From assembly GCA_003456155.1 (NCBI GenBank), contig DMPC01000164.1:1378-65377 (forward strand): DNA of 64,000 nt, given 5' to 3'. The notes beneath the pieces were generated by a model. That model was not told the origin of the DNA. It worked only from the letters and a program-made list of their open reading frames with translations, and did not search any database. Shown in pieces: positions 7,000 through 38,109 of the stretch. The stretch is from Actinomycetota bacterium. Lineage in GTDB: Bacteria; Actinomycetota; Actinomycetes; S36-B12. Position 1 is the stretch's first letter, and every line of letters starts with the position of its first letter. The translations under genes were made by a program, and so were the position numbers.

Positions 7000-7016
7000 G
7001 TGTCGGATTGGGACAC
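7000..7016. promoter_or_regulatory. Candidate operator: dyad GTGTC-N7-GACAC carrying an ATTGGGACAC box
   Basis: Read directly as cGTGTCGGATTGGGACACcc. It is centred about 90 bp from both divergent starts (6920 minus, 7103 plus). The same box recurs at 14716, 26452 (reverse), 29154 and 38098. Confidence 0.35.
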
Positions 7017-7102
7017 CCACAGAAAGCCCCGGTGCTGGACGCTGCCCTGACCGGACACGGTCCATCCTGAACCGTGGATCCACACCGCGAGGAGGACGTG
7101 AC

Positions 7103-9202
7103 ATGAGCTCGGGCGGCTTGGAGTTTCTGCACAATCCGTCGAGCGTCGCCGTCATTGGGGCATCGGATGATCCTGACAAGATCGGAGGCCGCCCGATCGC
7201 CTTCATGCAGCGATTCGGCTATCAGGGAACCATCATGCCGGTCAATCCGTCCAGAGCGACCGTGCAGGGACTCACCGCCTACCCGGACGTGGCCTCCCTT
7301 CCCTCAGTCCCCGACGCCGTCATCGTGGCACTTCCCGGCCAGGCAGCCGTCGACGCCGTCGACGCCTGTGCGGCATTGGGGGTGAAGGGCGGCGTCGTGA
7401 TGGCCTCCGGATTCGGGGAAACCGGTCGAGCAGACGACCTCGCGCGACAGCAGGATCTCGTTGCGCGGGCGAATTCCCGGGGCATGCGACTGGTGGGCCC
7501 CAATTCCCAGGGGCTGGCGAATTTCGGGACCGGCACCATCCTCAGCTTTTCGACGATGTTCGTCGAGCAGGAGCCGCTTGACGGCCCGATCGCCATCGTG
7601 AGCCAGAGCGGTGCCATGGCCTCCGTTCCCTACGGGCTGCTGCGTCGCCGCGGGCTGGGTGTGCGCTATGTGCACGGCACCGGCAACGATGCTGATCTGG
7701 GTGTGGGCGACCTGGCTGAGGCGGTGCTGCATGATCCTGACATTCGACTCGTCCTGCTGTATCTCGAGGACATTCGCGACCCACGTGCGCTGGAGCGGGC
7801 GGCGGCTCTAGCACTGGAGCGCGACGTGCCGATTGTCGCGATGATGGGGGGGCGTAGTGCGGACGGCCGACGCGCTGCGTCCTCGCATACCGGCGCCCTC
7901 GCCAACGAGCAGCGAGTAGTGGATGCCTTCCTGGCTCGCACCGGAATCTGGCGCGCTCGATCTCTCGCCGGGATGGTGGATACCGCAGCCCTGTACCTGC
8001 AGGACTGGCGCCCGAGGGGACGCAGACTGGCCATCGTCAGCAACTCCGGCGCCATCTGCGTTCTCGGAGCGGACGCGGCGGCCGACAACGATCTCGAACT
8101 GAGCACGTTTGCAGGCGAGACGACCGAGGCGCTGGCAACGGTCCTTCCTGCCTTCGCAACCAAGGCAAATCCTGTGGACATCACGGCGGCGCTCCTCACC
8201 GACAGCAGCCTCTTCAGCAAGGTACTGCCGATTCTCGCCGGGGATCCGGAGGTGGACGCGGCATTCATCGGCATCCCGGTCTCTGGCAAGGGATACGACT
8301 TCCCCCGATTCGCCGCTGATACTGCAGAGTTTGCCCGGCGCGACAACAAGCCAGTCGTCGTGGCGGTCCCTCAGGAGACAGTCGCGGCAGAGTTTCGTGC
8401 GCGTGGCCTGGTTGTCTTCGATGACGAGGCCACTGCTCTGACCGCGTTGGGCCAGTACCTGCACCACAGGGACTTGATGGCGAACGCCCTCGCCAACGGC
8501 CCTCTGCACACGCGCCGACCCGTCAGCGGGCAAACCGAGGTCCTCAGTGAGGCAGCTGCCCTCTCAGTCCTGCGCGACGCCGGTATCCCCACCGTTGAGG
8601 TAGCTGTGTGCTCGACGGCAGAGGAAGCCCGGGCAGCCTTCGAGCGCTTCGGTGACGTCCCGGTCGCCGTGAAGGGTTGCCCGAACGAGGCCACGCACAA
8701 GAGCGAACTTGGACTCGTCCGCCTCGGACTCACCACCGTCGATGCGGTGGCAGACGCAGCGGACGATCTGCTGCGCACCATGGATGCGCTCGGGCTTGAG
8801 GCCGAGGGGGTCCTCGTTTCCCCGATGGTGTCGGGCATCACAGAGGGACTCATCGGAGCACATGTGGACCCGGTGTTCGGACCTGTCGTGCTGGTCGGCG
8901 CTGGCGGGAAGTACGTCGAGGCCCTGGACGACGTACAGGCGCTGATCCCGCCCTTCAGCGCAGCGGATGCTCGAGCAGCCATTGGCCGTCTCCGGATCGC
9001 CCCGCTTCTGGCGGGAGTTCGCGGTGAACCACCCACCGATATCGAGGCATGGGTGAGTGCCACCCTCGCTCTCAGCCGCCTCATCCTGGCTGACCCGGCG
9101 ATCCAAAGCGTGGACGTCAACCCCTTGATGGTGGGCGCCGCCGAGGGCGAATCCGCCTTCGGGGCGCTAGCAGTCGATGCCGTCGTTGAGCGCATCGCCT
9201 GA
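7103..9202 (+). CDS. ADP-forming acyl-CoA synthetase (fused CoA-binding/succinyl-CoA-synthetase-like + ATP-grasp domains)
   Basis: Track ORF 6971..9202. ATG at 7103 is preceded by GGAGGA. CoA-binding N-terminus SVAVIGASDDPDKIGG. About 700 aa with a C-terminal ATP-grasp region and no GNAT domain. Confidence 0.8.
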   Translation: MSSGGLEFLHNPSSVAVIGASDDPDKIGGRPIAFMQRFGYQGTIMPVNPSRATVQGLTAYPDVASLPSVPDAVIVALPGQAAVDAVDACAALGVKGGVVMASGFGETGRADDLARQQDLVARANSRGMRLVGPNSQGLANFGTGTILSFSTMFVEQEPLDGPIAIVSQSGAMASVPYGLLRRRGLGVRYVHGTGNDADLGVGDLAEAVLHDPDIRLVLLYLEDIRDPRALERAAALALERDVPIVAMMGGRSADGRRAASSHTGALANEQRVVDAFLARTGIWRARSLAGMVDTAALYLQDWRPRGRRLAIVSNSGAICVLGADAAADNDLELSTFAGETTEALATVLPAFATKANPVDITAALLTDSSLFSKVLPILAGDPEVDAAFIGIPVSGKGYDFPRFAADTAEFARRDNKPVVVAVPQETVAAEFRARGLVVFDDEATALTALGQYLHHRDLMANALANGPLHTRRPVSGQTEVLSEAAALSVLRDAGIPTVEVAVCSTAEEARAAFERFGDVPVAVKGCPNEATHKSELGLVRLGLTTVDAVADAADDLLRTMDALGLEAEGVLVSPMVSGITEGLIGAHVDPVFGPVVLVGAGGKYVEALDDVQALIPPFSAADARAAIGRLRIAPLLAGVRGEPPTDIEAWVSATLALSRLILADPAIQSVDVNPLMVGAAEGESAFGALAVDAVVERIA

Positions 9203-9298
9203 ATCAAGCCTGTTCCAAACTAGAACAACGGCGGGCACCCGCCCGATGGTGTGATCACCTTGGCCGACAGAGGCCGCAACAAGGCGGAGGAGCACACG

Positions 9299-10387
9299 GT
9301 GAAGGGTCGTCTCGTCGCACTCGTCGGGCCGGATCAGGTCGAAATCCACGAATATGACCTACCTGAGCTTCCCCCGGGGGCCGTTCTTCTGAAGGTCAGG
9401 CGTGCCAATGTGTGCGGCTCTGACCTGCACATCTGGCACTTTCTCAGCGTGGCCTTCCGGGACGTGGCCATGGGCCACGAGTTCGTAGCGGAGATCGCCG
9501 AGCTTGGGCCAGGCGTGACCACCGACTCGGGCGGACAGCTGATCTCCGTTGGCGATCGCGTAGCCGCTGTCTACTACCACACCTGCTTGAAGTGCCCGGC
9601 ATGCGGACGCGGCGACTTCGCCATGTGCCACAACTCCGGGCGGAACATGGGTCTGCCCCCCACAACGCCTCCACACTTCAATGGCGCCTTCGCCACCCAC
9701 TACTTCGTGAGTCCGGGCCAGTTCTTCTACAAGGTGCCCGACAACGTCACTGATGCAGCGGCTGCCGGCGCGAACTGCGGTCTCGCGCAGATGATGTGCA
9801 GCATCGACAAGTTGAATGTCCGGCGAGGACAGAACGTGGTGGTTCAGGGTGCCGGCGGACTGGGGCTCTATGCCTCAGCCGTGGCAAAGAGCACGGGAGC
9901 GACCGTCATCGTCGTGGAGAAGGAGCCCGTGCGCATCGAGTCAGCTCGAACCTTTGGCGCCGATCACATCATCGACATCAATGAGTTTCCCACCGTCGAG
10001 GCTCGAACCGCCCGCATCCTCGAACTCACCAACGGAATCGGAGCAGATGCAATCATCGAGGTGACCGGCCGTCCATCCGCGTTCGCGGAAGCCATTGACT
10101 ACTCCCGCGTCGGAGCGAGCATCGCCTCCATCGGCAATCTGAATGTGGGCAAGGATTTTGAGATCAGTTTTGCCCCAGCACTGATCACGCGCAAGCAGCT
10201 GACCATTGTTGGGATACTCAGATATGACCCCTGGTACCTGAAAGACGCGCTCAATTTTCTGGCAGAGTACCGCGACGACTTCCCCTTCGACGCACTCAGC
10301 GATCGGGTCTTCAGCATGGACGACATCAACCAAGCGCTCGAGTTGAGTGAGGCCCGCGTGGTAGCGCGCGCCGCCATCATTCCCTGA
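9299..10387 (+). CDS. Zinc-dependent alcohol dehydrogenase (MDR family)
   Basis: Track ORF 9251..10387. GTG at 9299 is preferred because GGCGGAGGAG sits just upstream. Catalytic Zn motif GHEFVAEI, structural Zn CLKCPACGRGDFAMC, Rossmann VQGAGGLG. Confidence 0.85.
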   Translation: MKGRLVALVGPDQVEIHEYDLPELPPGAVLLKVRRANVCGSDLHIWHFLSVAFRDVAMGHEFVAEIAELGPGVTTDSGGQLISVGDRVAAVYYHTCLKCPACGRGDFAMCHNSGRNMGLPPTTPPHFNGAFATHYFVSPGQFFYKVPDNVTDAAAAGANCGLAQMMCSIDKLNVRRGQNVVVQGAGGLGLYASAVAKSTGATVIVVEKEPVRIESARTFGADHIIDINEFPTVEARTARILELTNGIGADAIIEVTGRPSAFAEAIDYSRVGASIASIGNLNVGKDFEISFAPALITRKQLTIVGILRYDPWYLKDALNFLAEYRDDFPFDALSDRVFSMDDINQALELSEARVVARAAIIP

Positions 10388-10423
10388 CCTCTGACCTGCA
10401 CAGCCCGAGCGGAAGAAGGCATC

Positions 10424-11869
10424 ATGATCTACGGCAACTACATCGCAGGTGAGTGGCAGGACCCGGGAGCCTCTGGCACCTTCCCGGTCATCAACCCCGC
10501 CACAGGCGAGGTGATCGCTGAGGTCGCGTGTGCAACAGCGGACGACATCCGCCGCGCCATCGATGGGGCGGACGCTGCGCGAGCGGCGTGGGCTGCCACG
10601 CCCGCCATCGAGCGCTCGGTCGTCATGCGCCGCGCAGCTCAGATCATGATGGATCGGATTGACGAGCTCGCTGCGATCCTCGTCAAGGAGCAGGGCAAGC
10701 CGCTGGCCCAGGCCAAGGGCGAGATCACTTACGGCTGCGGCTTCATCGACTGGTTCGCAGAAGAGGGACGGCGCGCCTACGGCACGACCATCCCCGCAAG
10801 CGTTCCTGACAAGCGGATCGTGATCATCCGCCAGCCGATAGGGATCAGTGTTGCGATCACTCCGTGGAACTTCCCGTCGCTCCAGTTGCTCAGGAAACTA
10901 GGTGCGGCTCTGGGAGCCGGTTGTCCCATGATCGCAAAGCCCGCGGAACTGACACCCCTGTCGGCGCTGGAGATCGCGCGGGCCTTCGACGAGGCTGGAC
11001 TGCCCAAGGGCCTTCTCTCCGTGGTGTGTGCACCAGAGCCGTACGAGTTCACGGACGTGATCATGGCTGATCCGCGCGTACGTGCAGTGTCGTTCACCGG
11101 ATCCACCGAAGTCGGCAAGCTGCTCATGCGGCGGGGAGCTGACCACGTGAAAAAGGTGTCCCTCGAGCTGGGAGGCCAGGCTCCCACCATCGTCTTCGAG
11201 GACGCTGACCTCGACGCTGTCGTCGTCGAGACCATGGCTTCGAAGTTTCGCAACATGGGGCAGACATGCGTGTCCGTGAACCGGATCTACGTCCACGAGT
11301 CGATCATTGACGAGTTGGCTGACCGCCTCAAGGCCGCCATGGCCCAGATGCCCATCGGCGACGGACTCGAGCCCGACACCGCGGTCGGCCCACTGGTGGA
11401 GCCTGCCGCCCTGGAGAAGGTCCAGAGGCACGTCGATGATGCCGTAGCCAAGGGTGCCAGGGTTGTCGTCGGAGGAAACCGGGCAACAGCAGCGCACCTG
11501 AAGTCAGATCAGTTCTTCGAGCCAACCCTCCTGGTCGGGGTCGACGAGTCCATGCAGGTGATGCAGGAGGAGACATTCGGCCCGGTCGCGCCGCTGGTCC
11601 CGTTCACCGACGAGGCAGACGTGGTCGCTCGCGCGAACGGAACGCCGTTCGGGCTCTCAGCCTACGTGTTCACTCGGGATATCAACCGGGCAATCCGGGT
11701 CAGTGAGGCGTTGGAGTTCGGCACTGTGGGAATCAACGACTCGACCTTCTCCGCGGTTCAGGCGCCATTCGGTGGGTACAAGGAGAGCGGCCTTGGGCGT
11801 GAGGGCGGCTTCCTCGGTCTCGATGAGTTCATGGAGTACAAGTTCATCTCGATCGGGCATGTCGGCTGA
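10424..11869 (+). CDS. NAD(P)-dependent aldehyde dehydrogenase (succinate-semialdehyde / omega-oxoacid dehydrogenase-like)
   Basis: 481 aa. ELGGQAP motif, catalytic Cys context GQTCVSVNRIYV, and EETFGPV. Confidence 0.9.
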   Translation: MIYGNYIAGEWQDPGASGTFPVINPATGEVIAEVACATADDIRRAIDGADAARAAWAATPAIERSVVMRRAAQIMMDRIDELAAILVKEQGKPLAQAKGEITYGCGFIDWFAEEGRRAYGTTIPASVPDKRIVIIRQPIGISVAITPWNFPSLQLLRKLGAALGAGCPMIAKPAELTPLSALEIARAFDEAGLPKGLLSVVCAPEPYEFTDVIMADPRVRAVSFTGSTEVGKLLMRRGADHVKKVSLELGGQAPTIVFEDADLDAVVVETMASKFRNMGQTCVSVNRIYVHESIIDELADRLKAAMAQMPIGDGLEPDTAVGPLVEPAALEKVQRHVDDAVAKGARVVVGGNRATAAHLKSDQFFEPTLLVGVDESMQVMQEETFGPVAPLVPFTDEADVVARANGTPFGLSAYVFTRDINRAIRVSEALEFGTVGINDSTFSAVQAPFGGYKESGLGREGGFLGLDEFMEYKFISIGHVG

Positions 11870-11884
11870 TCAGGTGAGCACACG

Positions 11885-13018
11885 ATGAAGGCTGCGATCC
11901 TTGGCGCGGGTGAGTCGAATCGGACACCCCGACCCGGCCGCACTGCCATCGACATGGCTGTCGAATCATCGCTGGCAGCCTTGGCAGATGCCGGCGTCGA
12001 GCTCGGAGAGGTCGACGGTGTCGTCACCGGCTACTCCTTGGCAGAGCGCCACTTGGACTTCAGCGCAAGCCTCAGCGAGGCGCTGGGGCTTCGCCCCTAT
12101 TGGTCCCAGACCATCTCGCGCAGCGGAGCCACAGGAGCATCTATCGTTGTCGATGCCGCGCTTGCTGTCCTCGGGGGCGCGTGTACCACCGCACTGGCGG
12201 TATGGGCGGACAATCGAGTCTCCGGAGAGCCGGAGGACATGGCGGGTGCTCTCGCTGCATCCCTGAATCCCTTCGAGCTCGCCAATGGCCCTCTGATCAC
12301 TACGCAGTATGCGCTCATCGCACAGGCATACCTCAACAGGACTGGCGCCACAGAGGAAGACCTCGCCTCCGTGGCGGTCCAGTTTCGCAAACATGCCGCC
12401 CTCAATGAGAGCGCGAAGTACCGAGCCCTCATCACGATCGATGACGTCCTCGGTTCACCCATGGTCTCCTCACCACTGCACCGTCTGGAGTGTGCGCTGG
12501 TCACCGACTATGGCGGAGCTGTTGTCGTCACTCGCTCTGACCGAGCGGGAGCCGATGCGGTGGATGTCCTCGGGTTCGGCGAGGCCTTGTCCCATTCGTC
12601 CATCCTGCGCAACCCGGAGCTCTTCACCACCGGGCGCACCGCCGCCGCGGACTCCTCGCGACTGGCCTACCAGATGGCGGGCATCGGTCCGGCTGACCTG
12701 CAGATGGCTCAGATCTACGACTGCTTCACACCCACAGTGCTCCTGCTGATGGAAGACTTCGGACTGTGTGAGCGGGGAGAGGCTGGAGCGGCCGTTCGCT
12801 CCGGTCTCCTCGACAGGGACGGGCCCCTTCCCAGCAACACGCATGGCGGCCTGCTGTCGTGCGGCTCTGGTGGAATCCTCCACGTGACCGAAGCAGTCCG
12901 CCAGATGCGGGGAACGGCAGGCGCACACCAACTGGACTCTCGCCCCGACACTGCTCTGGTCCACGGAAACGGTGGGATTCTTGGAGCTCAGACCACTCTC
13001 ATCCTGGGCAGGAGGTAG
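11885..13018 (+). CDS. Thiolase-like protein, SCP-x / nonspecific lipid-transfer type
   Basis: 377 aa. Thiolase C-terminal signature NTHGGLLSCGSGGILHVTEAVRQMRG. It is followed 2 nt later by a DUF35 partner, the usual pairing for this family. Confidence 0.75.
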   Translation: MKAAILGAGESNRTPRPGRTAIDMAVESSLAALADAGVELGEVDGVVTGYSLAERHLDFSASLSEALGLRPYWSQTISRSGATGASIVVDAALAVLGGACTTALAVWADNRVSGEPEDMAGALAASLNPFELANGPLITTQYALIAQAYLNRTGATEEDLASVAVQFRKHAALNESAKYRALITIDDVLGSPMVSSPLHRLECALVTDYGGAVVVTRSDRAGADAVDVLGFGEALSHSSILRNPELFTTGRTAAADSSRLAYQMAGIGPADLQMAQIYDCFTPTVLLLMEDFGLCERGEAGAAVRSGLLDRDGPLPSNTHGGLLSCGSGGILHVTEAVRQMRGTAGAHQLDSRPDTALVHGNGGILGAQTTLILGRR

Positions 13019-13857: not shown

Positions 13858-14649
13858 TCACTCGTAGCAGTAGGGGGCATGCTGGTACTGAGCCCAATCA
13901 TCCGGATCGTGATTGATCCATAGGCTCAGTTCCTCCGACTCGGCCATGCGCTTGATGCGCAGCAGACTGTGCACAGCCGACAGCGTGTCGTAGTCGAGCG
14001 GGAAGGGCCATTCGAGGTCGAGAGCGGCGCGCAGGTGAATCGCATCGCCAGTGAGCAGAAACGTGCGGTTGGCGAGTCGAACCTTGAGGCTGACCTCACC
14101 GGGCGTGTGGCCAGGCGTGGACATGATGATCATGCTGCCGTCACCGAAGAGATCCAGGTCAGTGCGAGCAGCCACCTCCCGCCACGTCCAGTTCTTGTAC
14201 TGGGCGACCTGCTCCGGAATGAAGCAGAAGCTGCCCAGCTTGGCAGGGAAGTGAGCAAAGGCAAGCTCGCCCTGTCCGGCATAGAAGGTCGCATTGGGGA
14301 ACAGGAAATGGCCGCCGGCATGATCGAAGTGAAGATGCGAGGAGATGACGTGCGTGACATCCGAGGTCTTGTAGCCGAGCGCCTCGATCTGACGATCGAT
14401 CCGCTGGTCGATCGTCCCGCCGATACCCAGGCCGTCAGCGAGCTCCTGCCCATAGATCGAGACCGGATCCTCGATCGCATCAGGGTGGATGCCAGTGTCG
14501 AACAGGACAAGACCCTTGGGATGCTCGATGAGAAAGGCGGGCATCGGGATGGTCATCTTCCCGGTGAGCCCGTACATCAAGGTGACTGCGTCGACGGTGA
14601 GCGTAGGGCAGTCAAGTGCCCACATCTTGCGCGCGAATCCGACAGACAT
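13858..14649 (-). CDS. MBL-fold metallo-hydrolase, N-acyl-homoserine-lactonase-like (lactonase)
   Basis: Track ORF 13858..14745. Start moved to Met33. Metal motif HVISSHLHFDHAGGH and a later TPGHTPGE. Confidence 0.8.
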   Translation of the reverse strand: MSVGFARKMWALDCPTLTVDAVTLMYGLTGKMTIPMPAFLIEHPKGLVLFDTGIHPDAIEDPVSIYGQELADGLGIGGTIDQRIDRQIEALGYKTSDVTHVISSHLHFDHAGGHFLFPNATFYAGQGELAFAHFPAKLGSFCFIPEQVAQYKNWTWREVAARTDLDLFGDGSMIIMSTPGHTPGEVSLKVRLANRTFLLTGDAIHLRAALDLEWPFPLDYDTLSAVHSLLRIKRMAESEELSLWINHDPDDWAQYQHAPYCYE

Positions 14650-14709
14650 CCTGGATCCTTCCGTGAGTGCCGATGCCGCCAGCATCGCCACCCTCGAAAG
14701 GGGCCGGAC

Positions 14710-14726
14710 GTGCCAGTTTGGGACAC
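14710..14726. promoter_or_regulatory. Candidate operator: dyad GTGCC-N7-GACAC carrying a TTTGGGACAC box
   Basis: Read directly as acGTGCCAGTTTGGGACACgc. It is centred about 70 bp from both divergent starts (14649 minus, 14788 plus). Confidence 0.35.
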
Positions 14727-14787
14727 GCAACCATCGGGCCCCCACGACACGATGTGGTCGAATCCCTGCTCACTTCGGAGGTGCCCG

Positions 14788-15642
14788 ATGATGACTGCCT
14801 CAGGCGTCACCACAACAGACATCGACATGTTGCGGCTGCGTGCCTACGACCTCCGGGTCGCCATGTTGGAGATGGCAGCAGGCAAGGGTGAGGGATACGT
14901 GGCCCAGGGGCTGGGCATGGCTGACTGCCTGGCCGCTCTGTACTTCCACGAGATGCACCACGACCCCGCAAACCCTGATTGGGATGACCGCGACCGATTC
15001 CTGCTGTCCACCGGACACTACTCAATAGCCATGTATGCGGTTCTTGCGGAGGCCGGCTACCTCGACCGTGCAGAGTTTCCGAGTTACGGCCTGAACGGCT
15101 CACGACTCCCCATGAGCACCTTCGATGACCTCCCAGGCCTCGAGATCGTCGGCGGTTCACTCGGCCAGGGACTCGGCCAGGCAGTCGGCATGGCCCTCGG
15201 CCTGCGGCTCGACGGTCGCGAGGCTCGGGTGTTCTGCGAGGTCTCTGATGGGGAGCTTCAGGAGGGGTCGACCTGGGAGGCCCTCATGTCTGGGGCAACC
15301 TTCGGCTGCGACAACCTGGTCGCACTGTTCGACTGCAATGGAGTTCAGGCAGACGGACCGGTGCACGTCCAACTTGAGCCCGTCCTGGACAAGATCTCCG
15401 CCTTCGGCTGGTCATCGATCGAGATCAATGGTAACGACATGGAGGCACTTGTCAGGGCTCTCGAGGTCTCACGGGTGCGCGACGGCAAACCCAAGGCGAT
15501 CATCATGCGGACGCAGCCAGGAAGTGGCGTTCCGACCCTGGAAAAGAGGGAGCGGGCGCACTTCGTGCGAATCACCGATGAGGAGTGGCAGGTCATGCGC
15601 GACGAACTTGAAGCCGGGCGTCCAGGAGCGACCCGTGGCTGA
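14788..15642 (+). CDS. Transketolase, N-terminal (ThDP pyrophosphate-binding) subunit of a split transketolase
   Basis: 3' part of track ORF 13969..15642. The 5' part of that ORF is antisense to the MBL gene. ATGATG at 14788. Motifs STGHYSIAMYAVLAEAGY, GSLGQGLGQAVGMAL and SDGELQEGSTWEA. Confidence 0.85.
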   Translation: MMTASGVTTTDIDMLRLRAYDLRVAMLEMAAGKGEGYVAQGLGMADCLAALYFHEMHHDPANPDWDDRDRFLLSTGHYSIAMYAVLAEAGYLDRAEFPSYGLNGSRLPMSTFDDLPGLEIVGGSLGQGLGQAVGMALGLRLDGREARVFCEVSDGELQEGSTWEALMSGATFGCDNLVALFDCNGVQADGPVHVQLEPVLDKISAFGWSSIEINGNDMEALVRALEVSRVRDGKPKAIIMRTQPGSGVPTLEKRERAHFVRITDEEWQVMRDELEAGRPGATRG

Positions 15643-16606
15643 GGTGGCGGGTCGCACCCGCGGCATGGGCGAGCTCATCGATGTCGCCGACAAGGCCAGC
15701 GACTTCGCTCCTTTCGGACGAGAGCTCGCAGCGCTGGCCCGAGAGCGGGATGACATCGTGGGTTTGACCGCAGATATGGGCCGATACAGTGACATCCTGC
15801 CCTTCAGGGACGAGTACCCCGACCGCTTCTTCAACGTGGGCATGGCTGAGCAGAATCTGATTGCCGTCGCTGCCGGCCTCGCCAAGACCGGCAAAGTCGC
15901 CTACTGCACGACGTATTCCGTGTTCGTCACGCGGCGCGCCTATGACTTCGTGGCCATCGCATGCGCTCATTCACAGGCCAACGTCAAGATCTTCGCTGGG
16001 ATGCCAGGCCTGATGAACGGCTACGGAGCCACGCATCAGGCAACTGAGGACCTCAACATGATGAGGGGTATCGCGGACCTCACCATCATCGATCCCTGTG
16101 ATGCCGTGGAACTGCGCCAGGTGGTTCGGGCAGTGGCCGACATCAAGGGCACCGTCTACGTCCGACTGCTGCGCGGCAACGTCCCCGTGGAATTGGACGC
16201 GTCCTATCGATTCGTTCCGGGCAAGGCTCAGGTACTGCGTCCTGGCGGGACCATCGGCATCATCTCGACCGGCTACATGACTGGACGAGCGCTCGACGCA
16301 GCCAAGGAGGTCGCTTCGCGCGGCGTGCAGGTGGGCGTACTGCATGTACCCACCATCAAGCCGTTCGACACCGCGGGGGTGCTCGACTTTGTCGCTCGTT
16401 ACGACAGGCTCATCGTTGCCGAGAATCACAAGACGACTGGTGGCTTGGGCACTCTGGTGACCGAGGCCATGTTCGACGCAGGTGTCCTCAAGCCGGTCGA
16501 GCGCATCGGCCTCGCTGACTCCTTCTTCGAGTGCGGCTCGCAGGAGTACTTGGAGGCCCGCTACGGGCTTGACCTGCCCCGATTCATCCGCGCGATCATG
16601 GGCTAG
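15635..16606 (+). CDS. Transketolase, C-terminal (pyrimidine-binding) subunit of a split transketolase
   Basis: 3' part of track ORF 15125..16606. GTG at 15635 overlaps the upstream TGA (alternative ATG at 15665). Motif FFNVGMAEQNLIAVAAGLA. Confidence 0.85.
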   Translation: MAEVAGRTRGMGELIDVADKASDFAPFGRELAALARERDDIVGLTADMGRYSDILPFRDEYPDRFFNVGMAEQNLIAVAAGLAKTGKVAYCTTYSVFVTRRAYDFVAIACAHSQANVKIFAGMPGLMNGYGATHQATEDLNMMRGIADLTIIDPCDAVELRQVVRAVADIKGTVYVRLLRGNVPVELDASYRFVPGKAQVLRPGGTIGIISTGYMTGRALDAAKEVASRGVQVGVLHVPTIKPFDTAGVLDFVARYDRLIVAENHKTTGGLGTLVTEAMFDAGVLKPVERIGLADSFFECGSQEYLEARYGLDLPRFIRAIMG

Positions 16607-26463: not shown

Positions 26464-26468
26464 CCGAC

Positions 26469-26478: not shown

Positions 26479-26552
26479 ATTGACGATAACCTACGATGCC
26501 GGTCATGGGAAGTGCTGCGAAACCGCTGAATTCGCCTCGGGAGGGGGGCGGC

Positions 26553-27182
26553 ATGGTCCATCAGCGTGTGGCGGACAAGCGCAAGGAGATCATCGACTCA
26601 GCTGCGGCGCTGTTCGAGACCGAGGGCTACACCATCACCACCATGGCTGCCATTGCGCGTGCCTCAGGCCTCGCCAAGGCGAGCCTTTACCACTACTTTG
26701 CCAGCAAGGACGAGATCCTCTTCGCCATTCACGAGGAGTTCATCGGCCTGCTGATCTCCCGCCGGGACCAGAGGGCGGCGACGGGGCTGAATCCCGAGGA
26801 CGAACTGCGCGAGGTGTTCGGAGATGTGTTCGAACTTATGGATTCTCACCGTGGACACGTGCGCGTCTTCTTCGAGCACTACCGGGAACTGCCCGCGGCC
26901 CAGCAGCGCGTGATCCGGGCGAAAAGGGACAACTACGAGTCCTGGGTCGAGGACACAGTACGGGCAGGTGCTGCCTCTGGATCCTTCCGCGACGTGGACC
27001 CCCGTTTGGTCACCCTCGCCCTCTTCGGCATGGCCAACTGGTCGTACCAGTGGTACCGAAGTGGAGGGCCACTCACATCCCGACAGATCGCTGTTCACTT
27101 CTGGGACTATCTCATCCGTGGCATCGAGGGCCCCGGCCCTCTGGCTTCTCCCTCGTCATGGACCGAGGCGCTGGTTCAGTGA
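26553..27182 (+). CDS. TetR/AcrR family transcriptional regulator
   Basis: Track ORF 26496..27182. Met20 start is preceded by GGGAGGGGGG. HTH is TTMAAIARASGLAKASLYHYFASKDEIL. Confidence 0.85.
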   Translation: MVHQRVADKRKEIIDSAAALFETEGYTITTMAAIARASGLAKASLYHYFASKDEILFAIHEEFIGLLISRRDQRAATGLNPEDELREVFGDVFELMDSHRGHVRVFFEHYRELPAAQQRVIRAKRDNYESWVEDTVRAGAASGSFRDVDPRLVTLALFGMANWSYQWYRSGGPLTSRQIAVHFWDYLIRGIEGPGPLASPSSWTEALVQ

Positions 27183-28315: not shown

Positions 28316-29070
28316 CCGGGGCGGAAATCACCAGAGATCGTGATCCCGCCATCGGCCGAGAGCATGATGCCGGTCACGAAGGATGCATCCGAGGAAGCAA
28401 GGAAGGACGCAACACCAGCGATCTCTTCGGGTCTGCCGAGTCGACGCAGAGGTGTCCTTCGAAGGATTGCCTCCTCAGCAAGAACTCCCTGATCGAACCC
28501 TGACCGCATGAGGTCCGTGTCGATGTAGCCGGGCGCAATGGCGACCACGCGAATCCCATGCTCGCCCCACTCTGCGGCGAGCGTTCGAGTGAGGCCGGTG
28601 ATCCCACTCTTCGTCGTGCTGTATGCGAGCCGGAGAGGAAGCCCGAAGGTCGAGGCGACCGATGCCAAGTTGATGATCACCGCGTTGTCGCCCTGCTGAA
28701 GAAGCGGGAAGGCAGAGCGGCAGCACCGCATCGTTCCCCCGAGGTTCACATCCAGCTCACGCTGCCATCCTGAGGTCTCGGTCTCCTCTGCCGGACGCCT
28801 GCTGATGATTCCCGCACTGTTGACGAGGACGTCCAGCCGACCGAAGCGCTCCTGAACCTCTGAAACGGCGTGGGCGACGCTTTCGTCCAGCGTCACATCC
28901 ATGACGATCCCGATCGACTCGTCCGCAGAGCCCAGTTCCTCCGCCAGCGCCACCGCCCCGACGCCGTTGACATCGGCAATCGCAACAGCGAGCCCGTCCA
29001 GCCGGAGGCGCCGTGCGACCGCAGCGCCCAGGCCCTGGGCGCCACCGGTCACGAGCGCGACCCGAGGCAT
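28312..29070 (-). CDS. SDR family oxidoreductase (candidate secondary-alcohol/cycloalkanol dehydrogenase)
   Basis: Track ORF 28312..29205. Start moved to Met46 (MPRVALVTGGAQGLGAAVA). Catalytic YSTTKSG. Divergent from the BVMO gene. Confidence 0.8.
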   Translation of the reverse strand: MPRVALVTGGAQGLGAAVARRLRLDGLAVAIADVNGVGAVALAEELGSADESIGIVMDVTLDESVAHAVSEVQERFGRLDVLVNSAGIISRRPAEETETSGWQRELDVNLGGTMRCCRSAFPLLQQGDNAVIINLASVASTFGLPLRLAYSTTKSGITGLTRTLAAEWGEHGIRVVAIAPGYIDTDLMRSGFDQGVLAEEAILRRTPLRRLGRPEEIAGVASFLASSDASFVTGIMLSADGGITISGDFRPG

Positions 29071-29144
29071 GGGAGGAGGGTCGCAGCCGACGATGGCCGC
29101 CCACTGACCCAGTTTCGGACGCCTGTCTCTCCCGCTCTGGCGAC

Positions 29145-29163
29145 GTGTCCAGAGATGGGACAC
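29145..29163. promoter_or_regulatory. Candidate operator: perfect dyad GTGTCC-N7-GGACAC carrying a GATGGGACACCC box
   Basis: Read directly as acGTGTCCAGAGATGGGACACcc. It is centred about 85 bp from both divergent starts (29070 minus, 29243 plus). It shares the 10-mer TGGGACACCC with the site at 7009. Confidence 0.4.
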
Positions 29164-29242
29164 CCGCCGCTGAACGAGGGTCTCAGGATGAAGTCTGCCG
29201 CCCAAGACGGGGCACGATGGCTCGGCTCGATGAGAGAGGACC

Positions 29243-30871
29243 GTGGAAGCGATGCCGGATGTAGTGGATGTCGATGTTGTCGTTATCGGTACGGGATTCA
29301 GCGGTATCTACGCCCTTCACAAGCTTCGGGATGGGCTGGGGCTGAACGTCCAGTCCTTCGAGGAGGCCGATGGCGTCGGCGGCACGTGGTACTGGAACAC
29401 ATATCCGGGCGCCCGCTCCGACACAGAAGTCAACGCCTACTGCTATCTCACCGACAAGGAGCTCTTCGAGGAATGGAAGTGGAGTGAGCGGTACCCGCGC
29501 CAGAAGGAGATCCTCGCCTACCTCAACCACTGCACTGACCGATGGGATCTTCGCCGCAGCATCCAGTTCAGCACACGGATCGAGAGCACTCGTTTCAACG
29601 AGGAGACTGGCCGCTGGGAGATCGAGACGAACAAGGGTCAGAAGTTCACGGCGCAGTTCGTGATTGAGGGAGTGGGTCTGCTCTCCTCCACGAACTACCC
29701 GGATTTCCCGGGCCAGAGCACCTTTGCCGGGCAGATCTACCACACCGCCCGCTGGCCCAAGGAGAAGGTGGACGTCACGGGCAAGCGCGTCGGCGTGATC
29801 GGTACAGGATCGAGCGGCACTCAGGTGATCGTCGAGATGGGGAAGGAGGCACAAGAGCTCTTTGTCTTCCAGCGGACACCGCAGTACTGCGTGCCTGCCA
29901 ACCACGGCCCGCTCGACCCGGAGAAGATGAAGCGGATCCTTGATGACTTCGAGGGCTACCGCGAGTCGGTTCTGCGATCCATCACCTCGTTCGGCTTCGA
30001 AGAGAGCCCGGTCCCGGCCATGAGCGTGTCCGCGGAGGAGCGCGAACGGGTGTTCGAGGACTCCTGGAGACAAGGGAACGGATTCCGGTTCATGTTCGCC
30101 TCGTTCAGCGACATTGGGGTGGACCCGGAGGCAAACAAGGCGGCCACCGACTTCCTGAAGAAGAAGATGGCCGAGACCATCAAGGACAAGAAGACTCTGG
30201 AGACGCTTACTCCCAAGGACCTCTGGGCCAAGAGGCCGCTGTGCAATGACGGCTACTTCGAGACCTTCAACAAGGATCATGTGCACCTTGTCGACGTCAA
30301 GGCAGATCCGATTGCAGCGATCACCGAGAAGGGGATCCGGCTCGAGAGCGGCGCCGAGTACGAGCTTGACGTCATTGTCCTTGCCACAGGGTTCGATGCA
30401 GTCTCAGGCATGTACCTGAAGATCGACCAGACAGGGCGCAAGGGCATCACCCTCCAGCAGAAGTGGGAGGAACGGCCACGCACCGCCTACGGGATGATGA
30501 GTGCCGGTTTCCCGAACATGTTCATGGTCTATGGCCCCATGGGACCGTTCACCAACCAGCCGCCGGTCCACGAATGGCAGGTGGACTGGATGGCTGACGC
30601 GATTCAGTACGTCCGAGACAATGGACTGCAGACCATTGAGCCCACCGAGGAGTTCGAGGAGGAGTGGATGCAGACCTGCGATGACATCGCCTACCAGACA
30701 CTCTTCATGAAGGTGAACTCCTGGATCAATGGTTCCAATGTCGTCGGCAAGCCTGTGACGAACTACTTCTACATGGGCGGCATGGGCGCCTACAACGATG
30801 TGGTCGGCGGGGCCAAGGAAGCCGGCTACCCCGGCTTCCGCACTGGCGGGGCCCTGTCGCATTCGGCGTAG
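29243..30871 (+). CDS. Type I Baeyer-Villiger monooxygenase (cyclohexanone/phenylacetone monooxygenase-like flavoprotein)
   Basis: 542 aa. FAD Rossmann VVIGTGFSG, the GGTWYWNTYPGARSD motif, BVMO fingerprint FAGQIYHTARWP (FxGxxxHxxxWP), and NADPH Rossmann GVIGTGSSG. Confidence 0.9.
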   Translation: MEAMPDVVDVDVVVIGTGFSGIYALHKLRDGLGLNVQSFEEADGVGGTWYWNTYPGARSDTEVNAYCYLTDKELFEEWKWSERYPRQKEILAYLNHCTDRWDLRRSIQFSTRIESTRFNEETGRWEIETNKGQKFTAQFVIEGVGLLSSTNYPDFPGQSTFAGQIYHTARWPKEKVDVTGKRVGVIGTGSSGTQVIVEMGKEAQELFVFQRTPQYCVPANHGPLDPEKMKRILDDFEGYRESVLRSITSFGFEESPVPAMSVSAEERERVFEDSWRQGNGFRFMFASFSDIGVDPEANKAATDFLKKKMAETIKDKKTLETLTPKDLWAKRPLCNDGYFETFNKDHVHLVDVKADPIAAITEKGIRLESGAEYELDVIVLATGFDAVSGMYLKIDQTGRKGITLQQKWEERPRTAYGMMSAGFPNMFMVYGPMGPFTNQPPVHEWQVDWMADAIQYVRDNGLQTIEPTEEFEEEWMQTCDDIAYQTLFMKVNSWINGSNVVGKPVTNYFYMGGMGAYNDVVGGAKEAGYPGFRTGGALSHSA

Positions 30872-30873
30872 CC

Positions 30874-31770
30874 ATGGGACTCGGAAAGGGGGCTGAGGAA
30901 GGTGGCCCAGCCCCCTTTCACACGCTGATCAGCGTTGCGGAGTTCCATGAGCATCGCGATGCGACGTGGGTCGTCATCGATGCCCGGCACGATCTCCACG
31001 ACCCCCGAGCGGGTCATGCCGGCTACGAGAGCGGGCACATACCCGGAGCGATATTCGCGCATCTGGATCGTGACCTGACGGGCATTCGGGTCCCAGGCGA
31101 GACCGGTCGCCGCCCTCTGCCGGAGGCCGGTGACCTCACCGAGGCCATCCGCCGCTGGGGTATCGGCCCCCGAACCCAGGTCGTCGTCTACGACAATCAT
31201 GGCGGCTCCATGGCTGCAGCCCGCCTCTGGGTGCTGTTGCGCTGGCTCGGACACGAGGACGCTGCTGTGCTCGATGGCGGATTGGGGGCTTGGCAGGCAG
31301 CTGGCCTCCCCTTGTCACGGGCGGTGCCTCGACCGACCCATGGGGCCTTCGAGCCACGTCTTCAGCCTCACTGGATAGCGGACACCGATCAGGTCCGATC
31401 GGCACTCATCGATCCACACACTGTCCTGATCGATGCACGACCCACCGAGGTGTACCGGGGAACTCAGCCGTCCGAGGACCGGGTGCCGGGCCACATCCCC
31501 GGGGCACGATGCCTACCTCTGCAGGCGATCCAAGCACCGGACGGCACACTCGCCTCAGCACAGACTCTGGTCCTGCGCTACCAGTCACTGGGGGCATTGG
31601 ACGAGCCGGTCACCACGCGAATTGCCTATTGCGGGGGTGGCGTGTGGTCAGCACAGCATGTGCTGGCCATGACGCATGCCGGAATCATGGATGCACGGCT
31701 CTATATCGGATCGTGGAGCGAGTGGATTGCCAGCGGGGATCGTCCCGCCCAGACGTCATTGGCCTCCTAG
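30874..31770 (+). CDS. Two-domain rhodanese sulfurtransferase (thiosulfate/3-mercaptopyruvate sulfurtransferase-like)
   Basis: 298 aa, ATG 2 nt after the BVMO stop. GHIPGA appears in both halves. Active-site loop is AYCGGGVWSAQH. Confidence 0.8.
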   Translation: MGLGKGAEEGGPAPFHTLISVAEFHEHRDATWVVIDARHDLHDPRAGHAGYESGHIPGAIFAHLDRDLTGIRVPGETGRRPLPEAGDLTEAIRRWGIGPRTQVVVYDNHGGSMAAARLWVLLRWLGHEDAAVLDGGLGAWQAAGLPLSRAVPRPTHGAFEPRLQPHWIADTDQVRSALIDPHTVLIDARPTEVYRGTQPSEDRVPGHIPGARCLPLQAIQAPDGTLASAQTLVLRYQSLGALDEPVTTRIAYCGGGVWSAQHVLAMTHAGIMDARLYIGSWSEWIASGDRPAQTSLAS

Positions 31771-31880: not shown

Positions 31881-33179
31881 TCAATCGGCTGCCTCGCTCG
31901 CGAGAACATCGCGGGTGACAGCAACAATCTCTTCGACGTTGCGGCGGGAGAAGGGGAGCGGAGGTCGAATCTTGATCGATGTGTTGTCCGGTCCACACTG
32001 ACCGACAAGGATTCCGGCGCGGCGATAGGCATTCAACGCTCGTAGACATGCCTTCGGGTCCAGCTCACCCTTCGCATCAGCGAACTCAATTGCCGCGAAG
32101 AGGCCACTCCCCCGAACCCGCGCGCGCGCTCCGCTAGCACGGGCAACGGAGCGCAGGCCCCCTTGCAGTTCAGCGCCCACGAGGCCAGCATGGTCGAGCA
32201 GACATTCATCCTTGATGACGTCAAGAACCGCCTCTGCCGCAGCCATGCAGACCGGGTTGCCCCCGTAGGTGTTGAAATAGCGCCCCTGGGATCCGAACCC
32301 GTCCACCAGCTCCGCGGTTCCCACGATCCCTGCCACGGGAAGGCCATTGGCCATGGACTTTCCCATGACGACGAGGTCCGGAGTCACTCCTTGGCGCTGG
32401 TGCCCCCAGAAGTGCGTCCCGGTTCGGCAGAAGCCGGCCTGCACCTCATCGGCGATCACGATTCCACCTGCGGCCTGCGCCTCCCGGGAGGCGGGCCCCA
32501 GCAGGCCCTCTGGCTCCAACCACACGCCGTCCGAAGCGAGCGCCATGTCCAGGAGAAGGGCGGAGAACCCGAATTCCGATCTCTGGAGGTCATCGATTGC
32601 CTCGCGCACGATTCGGGCGAATGCCTCGCCACGGTCCTCGTCATTGATCTCGCGAGGGAACGTCACGGTCCGGATCCACGGTTCCCGCTGCCAGGACGCG
32701 CCCAGAGAGGGGGTTACGGACGCAGCCAGTGCGGTCACTCCGTGATAGGCATGGGATGAGATGACTATGCCCTGAGGTCGTCCAGGCATGCGTGCCATGC
32801 GCAAAGCCAAGTCGATCGCCTCGCTGCCGGTACACGTGAACATGCTCCGTTCGAGAGGCTCATCGAAGGTGGCCAGCAGCTTCTCCGCATATCTGACGAT
32901 GTCCTCGGTGAGGTAGCGCGTGTGCGTATTCAGGATGGCAGCCTGCCGACACTGCGCCTCCACCACTCGAGGATGACAGTGACCGACTACGGGAACGTTG
33001 TTGTAAGCGTCCAGCAGTCGGGAACCGTCCGCCTCGATGATCTCGACACCCAAGGCGCGGACCGGCACCACGGGTGACTCATAGAACAGGCGGTAGGCGC
33101 GTCCCAAGACCTTCTGGCGGCGTTGCAGCAAATCCTCGCGCATCTCGGAGCGTCCCAGATCCTCGGGCAGCGGTGTCAC
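31881..33179 (-). CDS. Class III PLP-dependent aminotransferase-fold enzyme, AGXT2L (phospho-lyase)-like
   Basis: Track ORF 31881..33512. Start set at GTG 33179, which overlaps the kinase TGA (alternative ATG at 33143). Motifs AYNNVPVVGHCHPRVV, LNTHTRYL, HAYHG, DEVQAGFCRTG, and PLP-Lys context VMGKSMANGLPV. Confidence 0.8.
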   Translation of the reverse strand: MTPLPEDLGRSEMREDLLQRRQKVLGRAYRLFYESPVVPVRALGVEIIEADGSRLLDAYNNVPVVGHCHPRVVEAQCRQAAILNTHTRYLTEDIVRYAEKLLATFDEPLERSMFTCTGSEAIDLALRMARMPGRPQGIVISSHAYHGVTALAASVTPSLGASWQREPWIRTVTFPREINDEDRGEAFARIVREAIDDLQRSEFGFSALLLDMALASDGVWLEPEGLLGPASREAQAAGGIVIADEVQAGFCRTGTHFWGHQRQGVTPDLVVMGKSMANGLPVAGIVGTAELVDGFGSQGRYFNTYGGNPVCMAAAEAVLDVIKDECLLDHAGLVGAELQGGLRSVARASGARARVRGSGLFAAIEFADAKGELDPKACLRALNAYRRAGILVGQCGPDNTSIKIRPPLPFSRRNVEEIVAVTRDVLASEAAD

Positions 33180-34174
33180 GTCTTCACTCCTGTGCTCCTC
33201 CATGCCATGAGGGCATGGTCCTCGTTCAGGGCGCCCAGGGCATCCATCCGTCGACGGGCGCGATCCGCGTGCCTGAGCACGTACTCTGCCCTCTCCGGGC
33301 GATAGTGGGCTCGGGCGAGCGCATTGCCGAGAGCGAGGGCCAGACGACCCCGCATGAGTCCCGGAAGCACACGGAGTTCGTCGGGTCTGAGTGCAACGAC
33401 ACTGCCGTAGCCATGGATGAGAGACGCGAGCGCCGAATCCGGTGACGATGGGTCTCCTATGTCGGCAAGGTACGACCCGGTAACGGCAAGTTCGACGATG
33501 CGGGGTGCCCACACCGCATCGCCGAAGTCGATGAAGCCGACTCCTCCGCCGATCTGGAGAAGCACGTTGTCGGGATTGGCGTCATTGTGGATCGGCTGAC
33601 GCGGCAAGTCGTGCAACGCGGGGAGGACCGTGTCCTGAAGCTCCAGGAGAGACGCACGGATGCGCCCGTCATCCGAGCCCAGCGGCACCTGGTCGATGAG
33701 CGTCAGGGCTCCATCGGGTCGAGTGAGGTCCCACGGGGTTCGTCCTGATGACGAGGGAGCAGGCGCCTCTGCCAGGCACTGGTCCAGATGGGCGAGCCCT
33801 CGACCTACAACGGCGGCCGCCCCAGGCCGGTCGAGCAGCTCCGACCACGGCGTTCCGTGAACGAACGTCGTCACCCAACTGCGTCGCTCGTGTCCTGCTC
33901 CATCACGCATGAGGAGGTCGATGGCGCCGTCTGTGGCGGGCACGAGGGCTGGGCACGCGATGGCAGAACCCTCGAGAGCCCGAAGCAGCGCCAGGACAAA
34001 ACGGTCACGCTCCTCCTCCTGATCACGAGCGACGACTCGAAGGACAGACCGCTCCCCGGCCGAGTCGACGAGGAAGTTGTCGTCATGCTCGCCCGGGAGG
34101 CAGGAGACGGTGCCCCCCATTCCGTACCTCGCGCGCAAGTGGTCCACCACGAGGTCGAGGGGCATTCCCGTCAC
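33176..34174 (-). CDS. APH/homoserine-kinase-II-type small-molecule kinase (hydroxylysine/amino-alcohol kinase-like)
   Basis: 332 aa. GTG start 2 nt after the hyuB stop. Catalytic loop QPIHNDANPDNVLL and metal motif GFIDFGD. Confidence 0.75.
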   Translation of the reverse strand: MTGMPLDLVVDHLRARYGMGGTVSCLPGEHDDNFLVDSAGERSVLRVVARDQEEERDRFVLALLRALEGSAIACPALVPATDGAIDLLMRDGAGHERRSWVTTFVHGTPWSELLDRPGAAAVVGRGLAHLDQCLAEAPAPSSSGRTPWDLTRPDGALTLIDQVPLGSDDGRIRASLLELQDTVLPALHDLPRQPIHNDANPDNVLLQIGGGVGFIDFGDAVWAPRIVELAVTGSYLADIGDPSSPDSALASLIHGYGSVVALRPDELRVLPGLMRGRLALALGNALARAHYRPERAEYVLRHADRARRRMDALGALNEDHALMAWRSTGVKT

Positions 34175-38047: not shown

Positions 38048-38097
38048 GTCCTCATCACAGCATGCGGCAGCCGTCAGCCGGATGGAAAACCCATCAC

Positions 38098-38109
38098 ATT
38101 TTGAGACAC
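38098..38109 (+). promoter_or_regulatory. ATTTTGAGACAC box in the hyuA/SDR divergent region
   Basis: Read directly. ATTTTGAGACACTTCC differs at only two positions from the reverse complement of 26448-26463 (ATTTTGGGACACCTTCC). Confidence 0.3.

Follow-up and report, generated by a model that had tools for sequence, protein, structure and literature searches.

A 19-bp palindrome as the probable operator of MimR-family regulators in an actinobacterial catabolic island

In a 64,000-nucleotide stretch of contig DMPC01000164.1, from the assembly GCA_003456155.1 of an uncultured member of the Actinomycetota (the whole stretch is referred to below as the window), a short box, TTGGGACAC, had been noted in several promoter regions and proposed in a preliminary description to join them in a dispersed regulon under a local regulator. 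This box is the better-conserved half of an imperfect palindrome of 19 bp with the consensus GTGTCyCA-N3-TGrGACAC (consensus from 33 sites), and about 12 copies of the palindrome, which would drive up to about 15 transcription units, are found within one catabolic island. The palindrome is probably the operator of MimR-family factors, namely one or both of two paralogous proteins encoded in the island (regulators 1 and 2), which would act like class II activators at the sigma-A-type promoters of the island regulon. In the mechanism that we favour, a regulator dimer would bind the operator via its Fis-type helix-turn-helix (HTH) domains, the operator lying at about -52 to -34 of sigma-A-type promoters that have a weak -10 hexamer (cAnnaT) and no recognisable -35 element. 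The N-terminal MimR_N/GAF module would sense a small oxygenated compound, and the bound, effector-sensing regulator would then recruit or activate RNA polymerase, as class II activators do. The identity of the binder, activation as opposed to repression, the transcription starts and the nature of the effector are all predictions from sequence. The proposal of a shared cis-element uniting dispersed promoters under a local regulator is supported by phylogenetic footprinting, by the confinement of the sites to intergenic DNA and by the occurrence of the motif with regulator-family genes in 22 of 27 distant loci.

The palindrome, its distribution and its conservation

Every site in the window fits a common 19-bp frame, with GT at positions 3-4, C at 7, T at 12, G at 15 and ACA at 16-18. 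The two dyad spacings reported previously (N7 versus N9 between GTGTC and GACAC) are therefore an effect of parsing. The suggestion that the half-box is more important than the dyad does not hold either, as perfect palindromes of 8+3+8 nucleotides exist in distant relatives. In these relatives, whose regulators are only ~30 % identical, perfect or near-perfect palindromes lie 150-260 bp 5' of the regulator gene, including the perfect GTGTCCCACATTGGGACAC in loci L020 and L021 and the perfect or near-perfect copies GTGTCTCACATTGGGACAC in L019 and ATGTCCCAGATTGGGACAC in L017.

Taken by itself, the heptamer GGGACAC is not enriched across the window (12 observed versus 15 expected). The longer string TTGRGACAC is enriched, with four copies against 0.59 expected, a number reached in one of 100 shuffles, and 8 of the 12 TG[GA]GACA cores fall within intergenic DNA, which makes up ~9.9 % of the window (binomial p about 3e-6). 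This intergenic share was taken from a curated gene map, a GC3-based gene caller having been dropped as too strict. Since a scan with the 19-mer consensus allowing up to four mismatches was too noisy (68 matches versus ~47 in shuffles), a matrix was used instead, trained on 33 sites that all come from outside the window. At 12 bits or more, the matrix gave 14 oriented hits in the window, as opposed to 1.4 in shuffles, and these correspond to 10 distinct places, beginning at 4536 (S0), 6998 (S1), 14708 (S2), 22818 (S3), 22898 (S4), 26452 (S5), 29104 (S6b), 29145 (S6), 38091 (S7) and 46715 (S8). All 10 are intergenic (p about 9e-11), and they span 4.5-46.7 kb. The comparison of coding with intergenic sequence that had been suggested as a check thus comes out, within the window, in favour of the motif. 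Past 46733, the window scan gave no matrix hit of even 8 bits or more, and the window's 17 kb of non-island genes likewise proved free of sites in the matrix scan. Two further degenerate sites at 44.6 kb (44624-44642, S9, and 44656-44674, S9') were recovered by footprinting, bringing the total to about 12 operators; the recurrence described at the outset is thus confirmed, at a higher number than the five to seven sites then counted. Chance or compositional recurrence in GC-rich intergenic DNA, which the lack of enrichment of GGGACAC over the whole window might suggest, can be given next to no credence, being refuted by the 10 of 10 intergenic matrix places, by conservation across promoters and by the ~20-fold higher density of sites beside regulator genes described below.

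Loci for comparison were those encoding relatives of the 600-aa regulator at 24617-26413. A genome scan gave two such relatives, and a metagenome scan yielded, among the matches listed, mostly distant or partial relatives, which were used as independent test loci. One relative, P0003 (85 % identical), contributed a gene map only and stands outside the DNA comparisons. Megablast of the 24-31 kb region against plasmids gave no match. Phylogenetic footprinting, the other check that had been suggested, was carried out on the orthologous promoters of four to five relatives with regulators 65-81 % identical, and the operators proved to be the main conserved blocks. The loci compared covered the promoters at S2 to S9'. 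In the five-locus alignment of the Baeyer-Villiger monooxygenase (BVMO) promoter (regulators 65-76 % identical), TGTCCAGA..TGGGACACC is the sole invariant block besides the ribosome-binding site and start codon. In the transketolase promoter, 19 of 19 bases, GTGCCAGTTTGGGACACGC, are the same in L001 and L003, where the flanks have diverged. The orthologous promoters of the ABC transporter operon in L083, L002, L001 and L003 have the palindrome CGTCTCACAATGAGACA, from which the window's copy differs by one mismatch, and the site in the promoter of the F420/luciferase-like monooxygenase (LLM)-type oxidoreductase gene is kept in the same four loci. S6b has a counterpart, GCGTCCGATTCTGAGCCAC, at the same offset in L001 and L003, and at S5 the box, the -10 hexamer (TAGAGT) and the ATG are equally spaced in L083. 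In L093, S7 is the same at 18 of 19 bases and stands beside an orthologous pair of short-chain dehydrogenase/reductase (SDR) and hydantoinase genes. The same locus keeps S9, with CATTGT beginning 22 nt after the site end, and S9', as ACGTCTCAGGCTGAGATCG; a sequence related to S9, GCGTCTCAAAGTGAGATGC, occurs in L094. S8 also has a counterpart in L093 (81 % identical), where ATGTCCGGAGATGGGACAG lies upstream of a BVMO-regulator 2 unit, with AATAAT beginning 23 nt after the site end.

Promoter geometry and mode of action

When every oriented hit of at least 14 bits in all loci was counted, without manual selection, a hexamer of the form xAxxxT was found to start 21 nt after the site end in 7 of the 87 hits, at 22 nt in 21 and at 23 nt in 14, compared with a background of ~2.3 per offset. 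Such a hexamer is present at that spacing in 39 of 62 distinct sites. The hexamers are weak, position 1 being C or G in 34 of 40 (e.g. CAGGAT, CACGAT, GACGCT and CACAAT), and no -35 consensus is recognisable in these promoters. With the hexamer set at -12 to -7, the operator of these sigma-A-type promoters would extend from about -52 to -34 and be centred at about -43 relative to the predicted transcription starts. Three start codons lie 34-35 nt after the operator end and ~7 nt after the -10-like hexamer, namely the GTG at 38143 of an SDR gene (34 nt after the end of S7), the ATG at 29070 of another SDR gene (34 nt after S6b) and the ATG at 26505 of a TetR gene (35 nt after S5, with the same layout in L083). 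As these genes begin at the predicted transcription start or directly beside it, their mRNAs are probably leaderless. At S0, S1, S2 and S5, correctly spaced hexamers are found on both sides of a single palindrome, and one palindrome may therefore serve divergent genes.

This predicted layout is like that of the class II promoters of CRP and FNR (-41.5), in that a palindrome adjoins or overlaps the -35 region, its distance from a weak -10 hexamer is fixed and no -35 consensus exists. It differs in that the protein family is unrelated and in that the centre, as estimated from predicted transcription starts, is at about -43. It also agrees with the mapped prmA promoter of Rhodococcus BCP1, which has conserved palindromes at or over the -35 region and a Fis-family regulator encoded divergently to it (PMC4428276).

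Operator and regulators could also be as proposed but work in the opposite sense, with the bound protein blocking the -35 region until it is released by an inducer; whether regulation is positive or negative is not readable from sequence alone. A repressor would be at home at a site that abuts or overlaps the -35 region, and the box in the regulator 1 promoter lies 4 nt nearer to its hexamer, as autorepression would predict. We nevertheless regard repression as unlikely, as weak -10 hexamers together with the missing -35 consensus are typical of activator-dependent promoters and simple occlusion needs no fixed phase to the -10. In addition, activators are found among the nearest named relatives (DhaR and TyrR), and deletion of mimR in Mycolicibacterium smegmatis reportedly abolishes acetone induction. 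Activation is thus preferred because of the weakness of the promoters and the activator role reported for MimR.

A box that keeps its distance and orientation with respect to a -10-like hexamer could also be a promoter element, i.e. a -35-like motif read directly by an alternative sigma factor, and TTGGGACA is loosely like TTGACA. Such a role appears very improbable, however, given that the gap of 21-23 nt between box and hexamer exceeds the 16-18 nt of a -35/-10 spacer, that the element is palindromic (perfectly so in distant loci), that one palindrome apparently serves both directions at S0, S1, S2 and S5, and that S5 and S9 have their strong half on the distal side.

The regulators and their relatives

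Regulator 1 (24617-26413, minus strand) is, by Pfam, a MimR-family protein composed of MimR_N/GAF, a degenerate AAA+ domain and HTH_8, and regulator 2 (44777-46579, minus strand) is its paralogue with the same architecture. Both 600-aa proteins match the Pfam families GAF, Sigma54_activ_2, AAA_lid_14 and HTH_8. MimR_N (PF26965) is assigned through precomputed Pfam annotations, namely those of P0001, a protein 100 % identical to regulator 1, and of homologues of both regulators. The GAFTGA motif (G[AS][FY][TS]G[AG]) is absent from regulator 1, regulator 2 and 120 homologues (122 members), and a Walker B motif of the form hhhhDE has no match in either regulator, regulator 1 having VVLLKHIE and regulator 2 ILVEHV; Walker A is kept (GEMGLGKT and GERGSGKA). 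Alignment to the structures of ZraR and NtrC is good only over the lid and HTH. In an AlphaFold model, which is confident for residues 320-598, the AAA+ core is compact and without an L1 insertion, a plain helix (388-400) standing between strands 2 and 3. The N-terminal sensor is poorly modelled, with pLDDT below 50 for residues 110-204. The regulators are descendants of sigma-54 enhancer-binding proteins that have lost the sigma-54-contacting parts (the GAFTGA loop and the Walker B DE). According to the literature, Actinobacteria lack the sigma-54 system (PMC3162934), and the -24/-12 promoter consensus TGGCA[CT]-N5-TTGC[AT] does not occur in the window. A -24/-12 reading of TGGGACAC was rejected on the grounds of this missing consensus and of regulators without GAFTGA and Walker B DE.

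With the sigma-54 enhancer-binding proteins (NtrC, NifA, ZraR and NorR), the local regulators share a homologous HTH_8 and AAA+ lid. NifA sites have the form TGT-N10-ACA and NtrC sites are 17 bp long, and the dyad described here, TGT-N11-ACA, is of similar size. The GAFTGA loop, the Walker B DE and the -24/-12 promoter of those systems are all missing here, however, and the operator would be located at about -43 rather than at -80 to -150. Closer parallels are Escherichia coli DhaR and TyrR, which act at sigma-70 promoters and which likewise combine a sensor domain, an AAA+-derived core and HTH_8 with the lack of a functional sigma-54 contact loop, and have palindromic operators near the promoter. 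Unlike in those two proteins, Walker B is also lost in the local regulators, and the operator sequence is different. The best NCBIfam match of both regulators is DhaR (NF008485), at 129 and 147 bits, far under the cut-off of 551, and neither is therefore a DhaR equivalog; the N-terminus matches the DhaR sensor structure 4lrx weakly (E 8.5e-4). The relative that gives the family its name is MimR of M. smegmatis and M. goodii, the acetone-responsive activator of the mimABCD propane/acetone monooxygenase; the M. smegmatis protein is the only member of the family known to have been characterised genetically. The local regulators share with MimR the domain architecture, PF26965 and an actinobacterial host without sigma-54, and regulator genes of the family adjoin, and are often divergent from, oxygenase or ketone-catabolic operons. 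Differences are that the local regulators are about 30 % identical or less to mycobacterial plasmid relatives and that the predicted targets here are an island of BVMO, lactonase, transketolase and ABC transporter genes in place of a di-iron monooxygenase. MnoSR is an unrelated two-component system.

The link between motif and regulator family was assessed in 27 independent loci, whose regulators are 25-52 % identical, with a matrix trained on sites from close orthologues only. In 22 of them, the regulator gene has a site within 450 bp, and the density of sites is 1.05 per kb near the regulator versus 0.052 per kb elsewhere in those loci (~20-fold); many of the matches elsewhere also lie in promoters of neighbouring catabolic operons. 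Cultured carriers such as Rhodococcus aetherivorans are among the test loci. Sites are found between a BVMO-like gene and the regulator in Rhodococcus sp. DMU1, between an acetone-carboxylase-like operon and the regulator on pRHL2 of R. jostii RHA1, where RHA1_RS41495 and RS41500 flank the site, upstream of hmoCAB in Mycolicibacterium chubuense NBB4 and upstream of an aldehyde dehydrogenase (ALDH) gene in Mycobacterium dioxanotrophicus, and plasmids of Rhodococcus, Cnuibacter and Mycolicibacterium are among the replicons that carry them.

Some of these loci show features of their own. On plasmids of M. dioxanotrophicus (L091, 9693-9711) and M. chubuense NBB4 (L092, 9697-9715), a variant operator, GTGTCCAAnAGTCGAACAG, lies directly 3' of a MimR-family gene arranged divergently to mdo (methanol dehydrogenase); this variant stands upstream of the ALDH gene or of the copper monooxygenase genes hmoCAB, and a -10-like hexamer begins 21-22 nt beyond its end. 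Another variant palindrome, GTGCGTCAnTTTGCGACAC, characterises one subgroup of the distant relatives, where it is located ~850 bp 3' of the regulator gene (L011, 7137; L013, 3333; L015, 12485), and L011 and L015 have an additional site upstream of the regulator. A plasmid of Cnuibacter physcomitrellae, a cultured member of the Microbacteriaceae (L088; NZ_CP020716, 189784-203568), encodes a regulator 36 % identical, has operator-like sites at 5868 and 9097 and carries the gene set of the window (ABC transporter, lactonase, zinc alcohol dehydrogenase (Zn-ADH), ALDH, SDR and ADP-forming CoA ligase), making it a possible experimental model.

Of the local regulators named earlier as possible binders of the box, the two GAF/AAA+/HTH_8 proteins are likely candidates and the TetR-family protein (26505-27182, plus strand, by Pfam) is an unlikely one. 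A TetR-type palindrome, CGACCGGTCG, lies at 26469-26478, between S5 and the -10 hexamer, and is kept in L002 (about 9940-9960) and L083 (about 9930-9950). TetR is probably not the binder of the box, and this separate conserved palindrome would be its own likely operator; given its place between S5 and the -10, the promoter of the TetR-APH operon may combine MimR-type control with TetR autorepression. That some other protein altogether reads the box, whether this TetR, a CRP/GlxR-type global regulator or a DosR-type response regulator, is quite improbable. The TetR gene does adjoin S5, the half-site of DosR, reportedly TTSGGGACT, resembles TTGGGACAC, and conserved elements near -35 of prmA are read as CRP-like by Cappelletti et al. 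(PMC4428276). The motif, however, tracks MimR-family genes in 22 of the 27 loci, and in several of the annotated loci no TetR gene is seen next to the regulator. The CRP/GlxR box, TGTGA-N6-TCACA, is a 16-bp dyad with TGT-N10-ACA, as opposed to TGT-N11-ACA with a CCCA/TGGG core here. The DosR arms are in the opposite order (GGGAC...GTCCC; GGGACT-N2-AGTCCC), and matches to the DosR site with up to two mismatches number three in the window against 4.06 expected, none of them at a site. A global regulator is further disfavoured by the 17 kb of site-free non-island genes.

Several observations weigh against binding by MimR-family activators as set out here. No site is present in 5 of the 27 distant loci. 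The sites do not tell regulator 1 from regulator 2, and TGGGAC and TGAGAC variants coexist in loci with one known regulator. S1, S5, S7 and S9 each have just one good half; the hexamer at S4 is without A at position 2 (although its T-N3-AT is at an identical offset in all five loci); and the box in the regulator 1 promoter lies 18 nt, instead of 22, before its hexamer. Among relatives, the box between regulator 1 and TetR is degenerate in L002, and the -10 hexamer at S7 is not at the standard spacing in L093. With regard to method, the training sites of the matrix were chosen by the analyst, and sites in orthologous promoters are non-independent observations.

The regulator family (MimR; 'acetoin/glycerol metabolism regulator') and sigma-54-free activators derived from enhancer-binding proteins (TyrR and DhaR) are known already. 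What appears to be new here is an operator, its promoter position and a multi-promoter regulon for an under-studied family, and no new principle of regulation is implied. A literature search found no description of an operator, promoter position or multi-promoter regulon for the MimR family, although a search cannot prove that none exists. With rather less assurance than for the island itself, but still on the favourable side, we propose that GTGTCyCA-N3-TGrGACAC would be the operator of the whole MimR family across the Actinomycetota, whose members would act as class II-like sigma-A activators from about -43, and that the two paralogues here would share ~12 operators in a cross-wired regulon with an embedded TetR repressor. 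If so, one matrix would predict MimR-family regulons in any actinobacterial genome, including propane/acetone monooxygenase, acetone-carboxylase-like, methanol-dehydrogenase and copper-monooxygenase clusters. MimR-type regulators control the oxidation by actinobacteria of propane, acetone, dioxane-related compounds and other small oxygenates, and are thus relevant to bioremediation and biosensors. Proteins of this type continue to carry the annotation 'sigma-54-dependent' in a phylum that has no sigma-54. A 19-bp operator at a fixed distance from the -10 hexamer offers a testable mechanism, the prediction of regulons from sequence and parts for inducible expression systems. For the uncultured freshwater organism considered here, the motif unites ~40 kb of scattered enzymes and transporters as one pathway-level unit.

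Sites and transcription units of the island

The strings by which the box was first recognised are present as quoted, save for one whose position is off by a single base, and each falls within a site of the 19-bp frame. S0, GCGTCCCATCGTGGGGCAC (4536-4554; 14.2 bits on the plus and 13.4 bits on the minus strand; intergenic), apparently serves both directions. Its forward target is an SDR gene (4623-5360, plus strand), with CAGGAT (4576-4581) starting 22 nt after the site end, and its reverse target is a thiolase gene (3278-4480, minus strand), with TAGCCT (4510-4515) starting 21 nt after the site end. The string TGGGGCAC is present here at 4547-4554, one base from the earlier reading of 4548-4555. 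This site and S4 had been listed as weak copies; both are indeed present, but they are not weak, as each scores well and S4 is kept in four relatives.

S1, TCGTGTCGGATTGGGACAC (6998-7016; 16.4 bits), includes GATTGGGACAC at 7006-7016, within GTGTC-N7-GACAC at 7000-7016, and is predicted to act in both directions, the flanking genes being identified by Pfam. The forward unit is an operon for ADP-forming acyl-CoA synthetase, Zn-ADH, ALDH and a thiolase-like protein (7103-13018, perhaps to about 13413; -10 GACGCT, 7038-7043), and the reverse unit is a gene for an AMP-binding ligase (5373 to about 6922; -10 CACAAT, 6970-6975). Within the operon, the genes for acyl-CoA synthetase and ADH are separated by a gap of 48 bp that holds another palindrome, CTGTTCCAAACTAGAACAA (TGTTC-N9-GAACA, 9210-9228), which scores 9.6-9.7 bits with the operator matrix. 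S2, ACGTGCCAGTTTGGGACAC (14708-14726; 19.6 bits on the plus and 12.9 bits on the minus strand), includes GTTTGGGACAC at 14716-14726, within GTGCC-N7-GACAC, and likewise faces both ways, towards a split transketolase (14788-16606; -10 CACGAT, 14748-14753) and an MBL-fold lactonase (13858-14650; -10 GATGCT, 14681-14686).

S3, TCGTCTCACAATGACACAG (22818-22836, minus strand; 15.2 bits), precedes an operon for a sugar-type ABC transporter and a glycerol-dehydrogenase-like (GldA-like) protein that runs from 22745 down to 16603 (-10 CACCTT, 22791-22796). S4, ACGTTCCTTTATGGGACAT (22898-22916, plus strand; 18.9 bits), includes TTTATGGGACAT at 22905-22916 and precedes the F420/LLM oxidoreductase-SDR pair (22967-24613); the hexamer, the non-canonical TGCCAT at 22938-22943, begins 22 nt after the site end. 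S5, GTGTCCCAAAATCCGACCG on the plus strand (26452-26470; 12.4 bits on the plus and 15.6 bits on the minus strand), contains ATTTTGGGACAC on the minus strand at 26452-26463. In the forward direction it has the standard geometry with respect to the TetR-APH operon (-10 TACGAT, 26492-26497; TetR ATG at 26505), its promoter-proximal half overlapping the TetR-type palindrome; on the minus strand it lies 18 nt before TAGCCT (26429-26434), upstream of regulator 1, which is perhaps also a member of the regulon.

S6b, GCGTCCGAAACTGGGTCAG (29104-29122, minus strand; 13.4 bits), is followed by GACCCT (29077-29082) and an SDR gene (28312-29070). S6 (29145-29163, plus strand), with 21.3 bits the top site of the window, is the dyad quoted previously, GTGTCCAGAGATGGGACAC, and precedes a BVMO-rhodanese pair (29252-31770; -10 CAGGAT, 29184-29189). 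The 10-mer TGGGACACCC is, as had been stated, common to 7009 and 29156. S7, CCATCACATTTTGAGACAC (38091-38109, plus strand; 12.1 bits), includes ATTTTGAGACAC at 38098-38109 and precedes an SDR gene (38143-38889; -10 CACAAT, 38131-38136). S9, ACGTCTCAAAGTGCGAACC (44624-44642, minus strand), has a strong distal and a degenerate proximal half and, being below the matrix threshold, was found by footprinting only; it precedes an SDR gene (44548-43823) and the second ABC transporter operon (down to 38953), with CATTCT at 44597-44602. S9', ACGTCTCAGGCTGAGAACG (44656-44674, minus strand), also below the matrix threshold, lies upstream of S9 and in tandem with it, the two centres being 32 bp apart. S8, CTGTCCTGAGATGAGACAG (46715-46733, minus strand; 14.0 bits), precedes regulator 2 (46579-44777; -10 GAGGAT, 46687-46692). 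Within the coding region of regulator 2, at about 45547-45563, there is a perfect 7+3+7 palindrome with GGGACAC, AGTGTGT-GGG-ACACACT, which is unflagged by the matrix and may be due to chance.

Beyond the linked units originally listed, the predicted regulon is extended by the ABC transporter/GldA operon, the LLM oxidoreductase-SDR pair, the thiolase at 3278-4480, the SDR at 28312-29070, the second regulator and the SDR/second ABC operon. The hyu operon (caprolactamase/acetophenone-carboxylase-like), which had been included, lacks a site with the standard geometry. Genes of the same families are clustered around the regulator both in L085 (52 % identical) and in Cnuibacter, in support of a single pathway, and the gene content suggests small ketones, hydroxy-ketones, lactones or polyols as its substrate. 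The part of the window that holds all the sites (4000-46000) has a lower G+C content, 0.61-0.66, than the flanks (1-4000 and 46000-64000; 0.66-0.70), and the G+C content at third codon positions (GC3) is about 0.9 for genes at 53-56 kb; the island may have a separate history. Finally, the island includes two APH-type phosphotransferase genes, one after TetR (27179-28315) and one between the hyuB and class III aminotransferase genes (33176-34174), and an APH gene next to the regulator is retained in L083 and L085.

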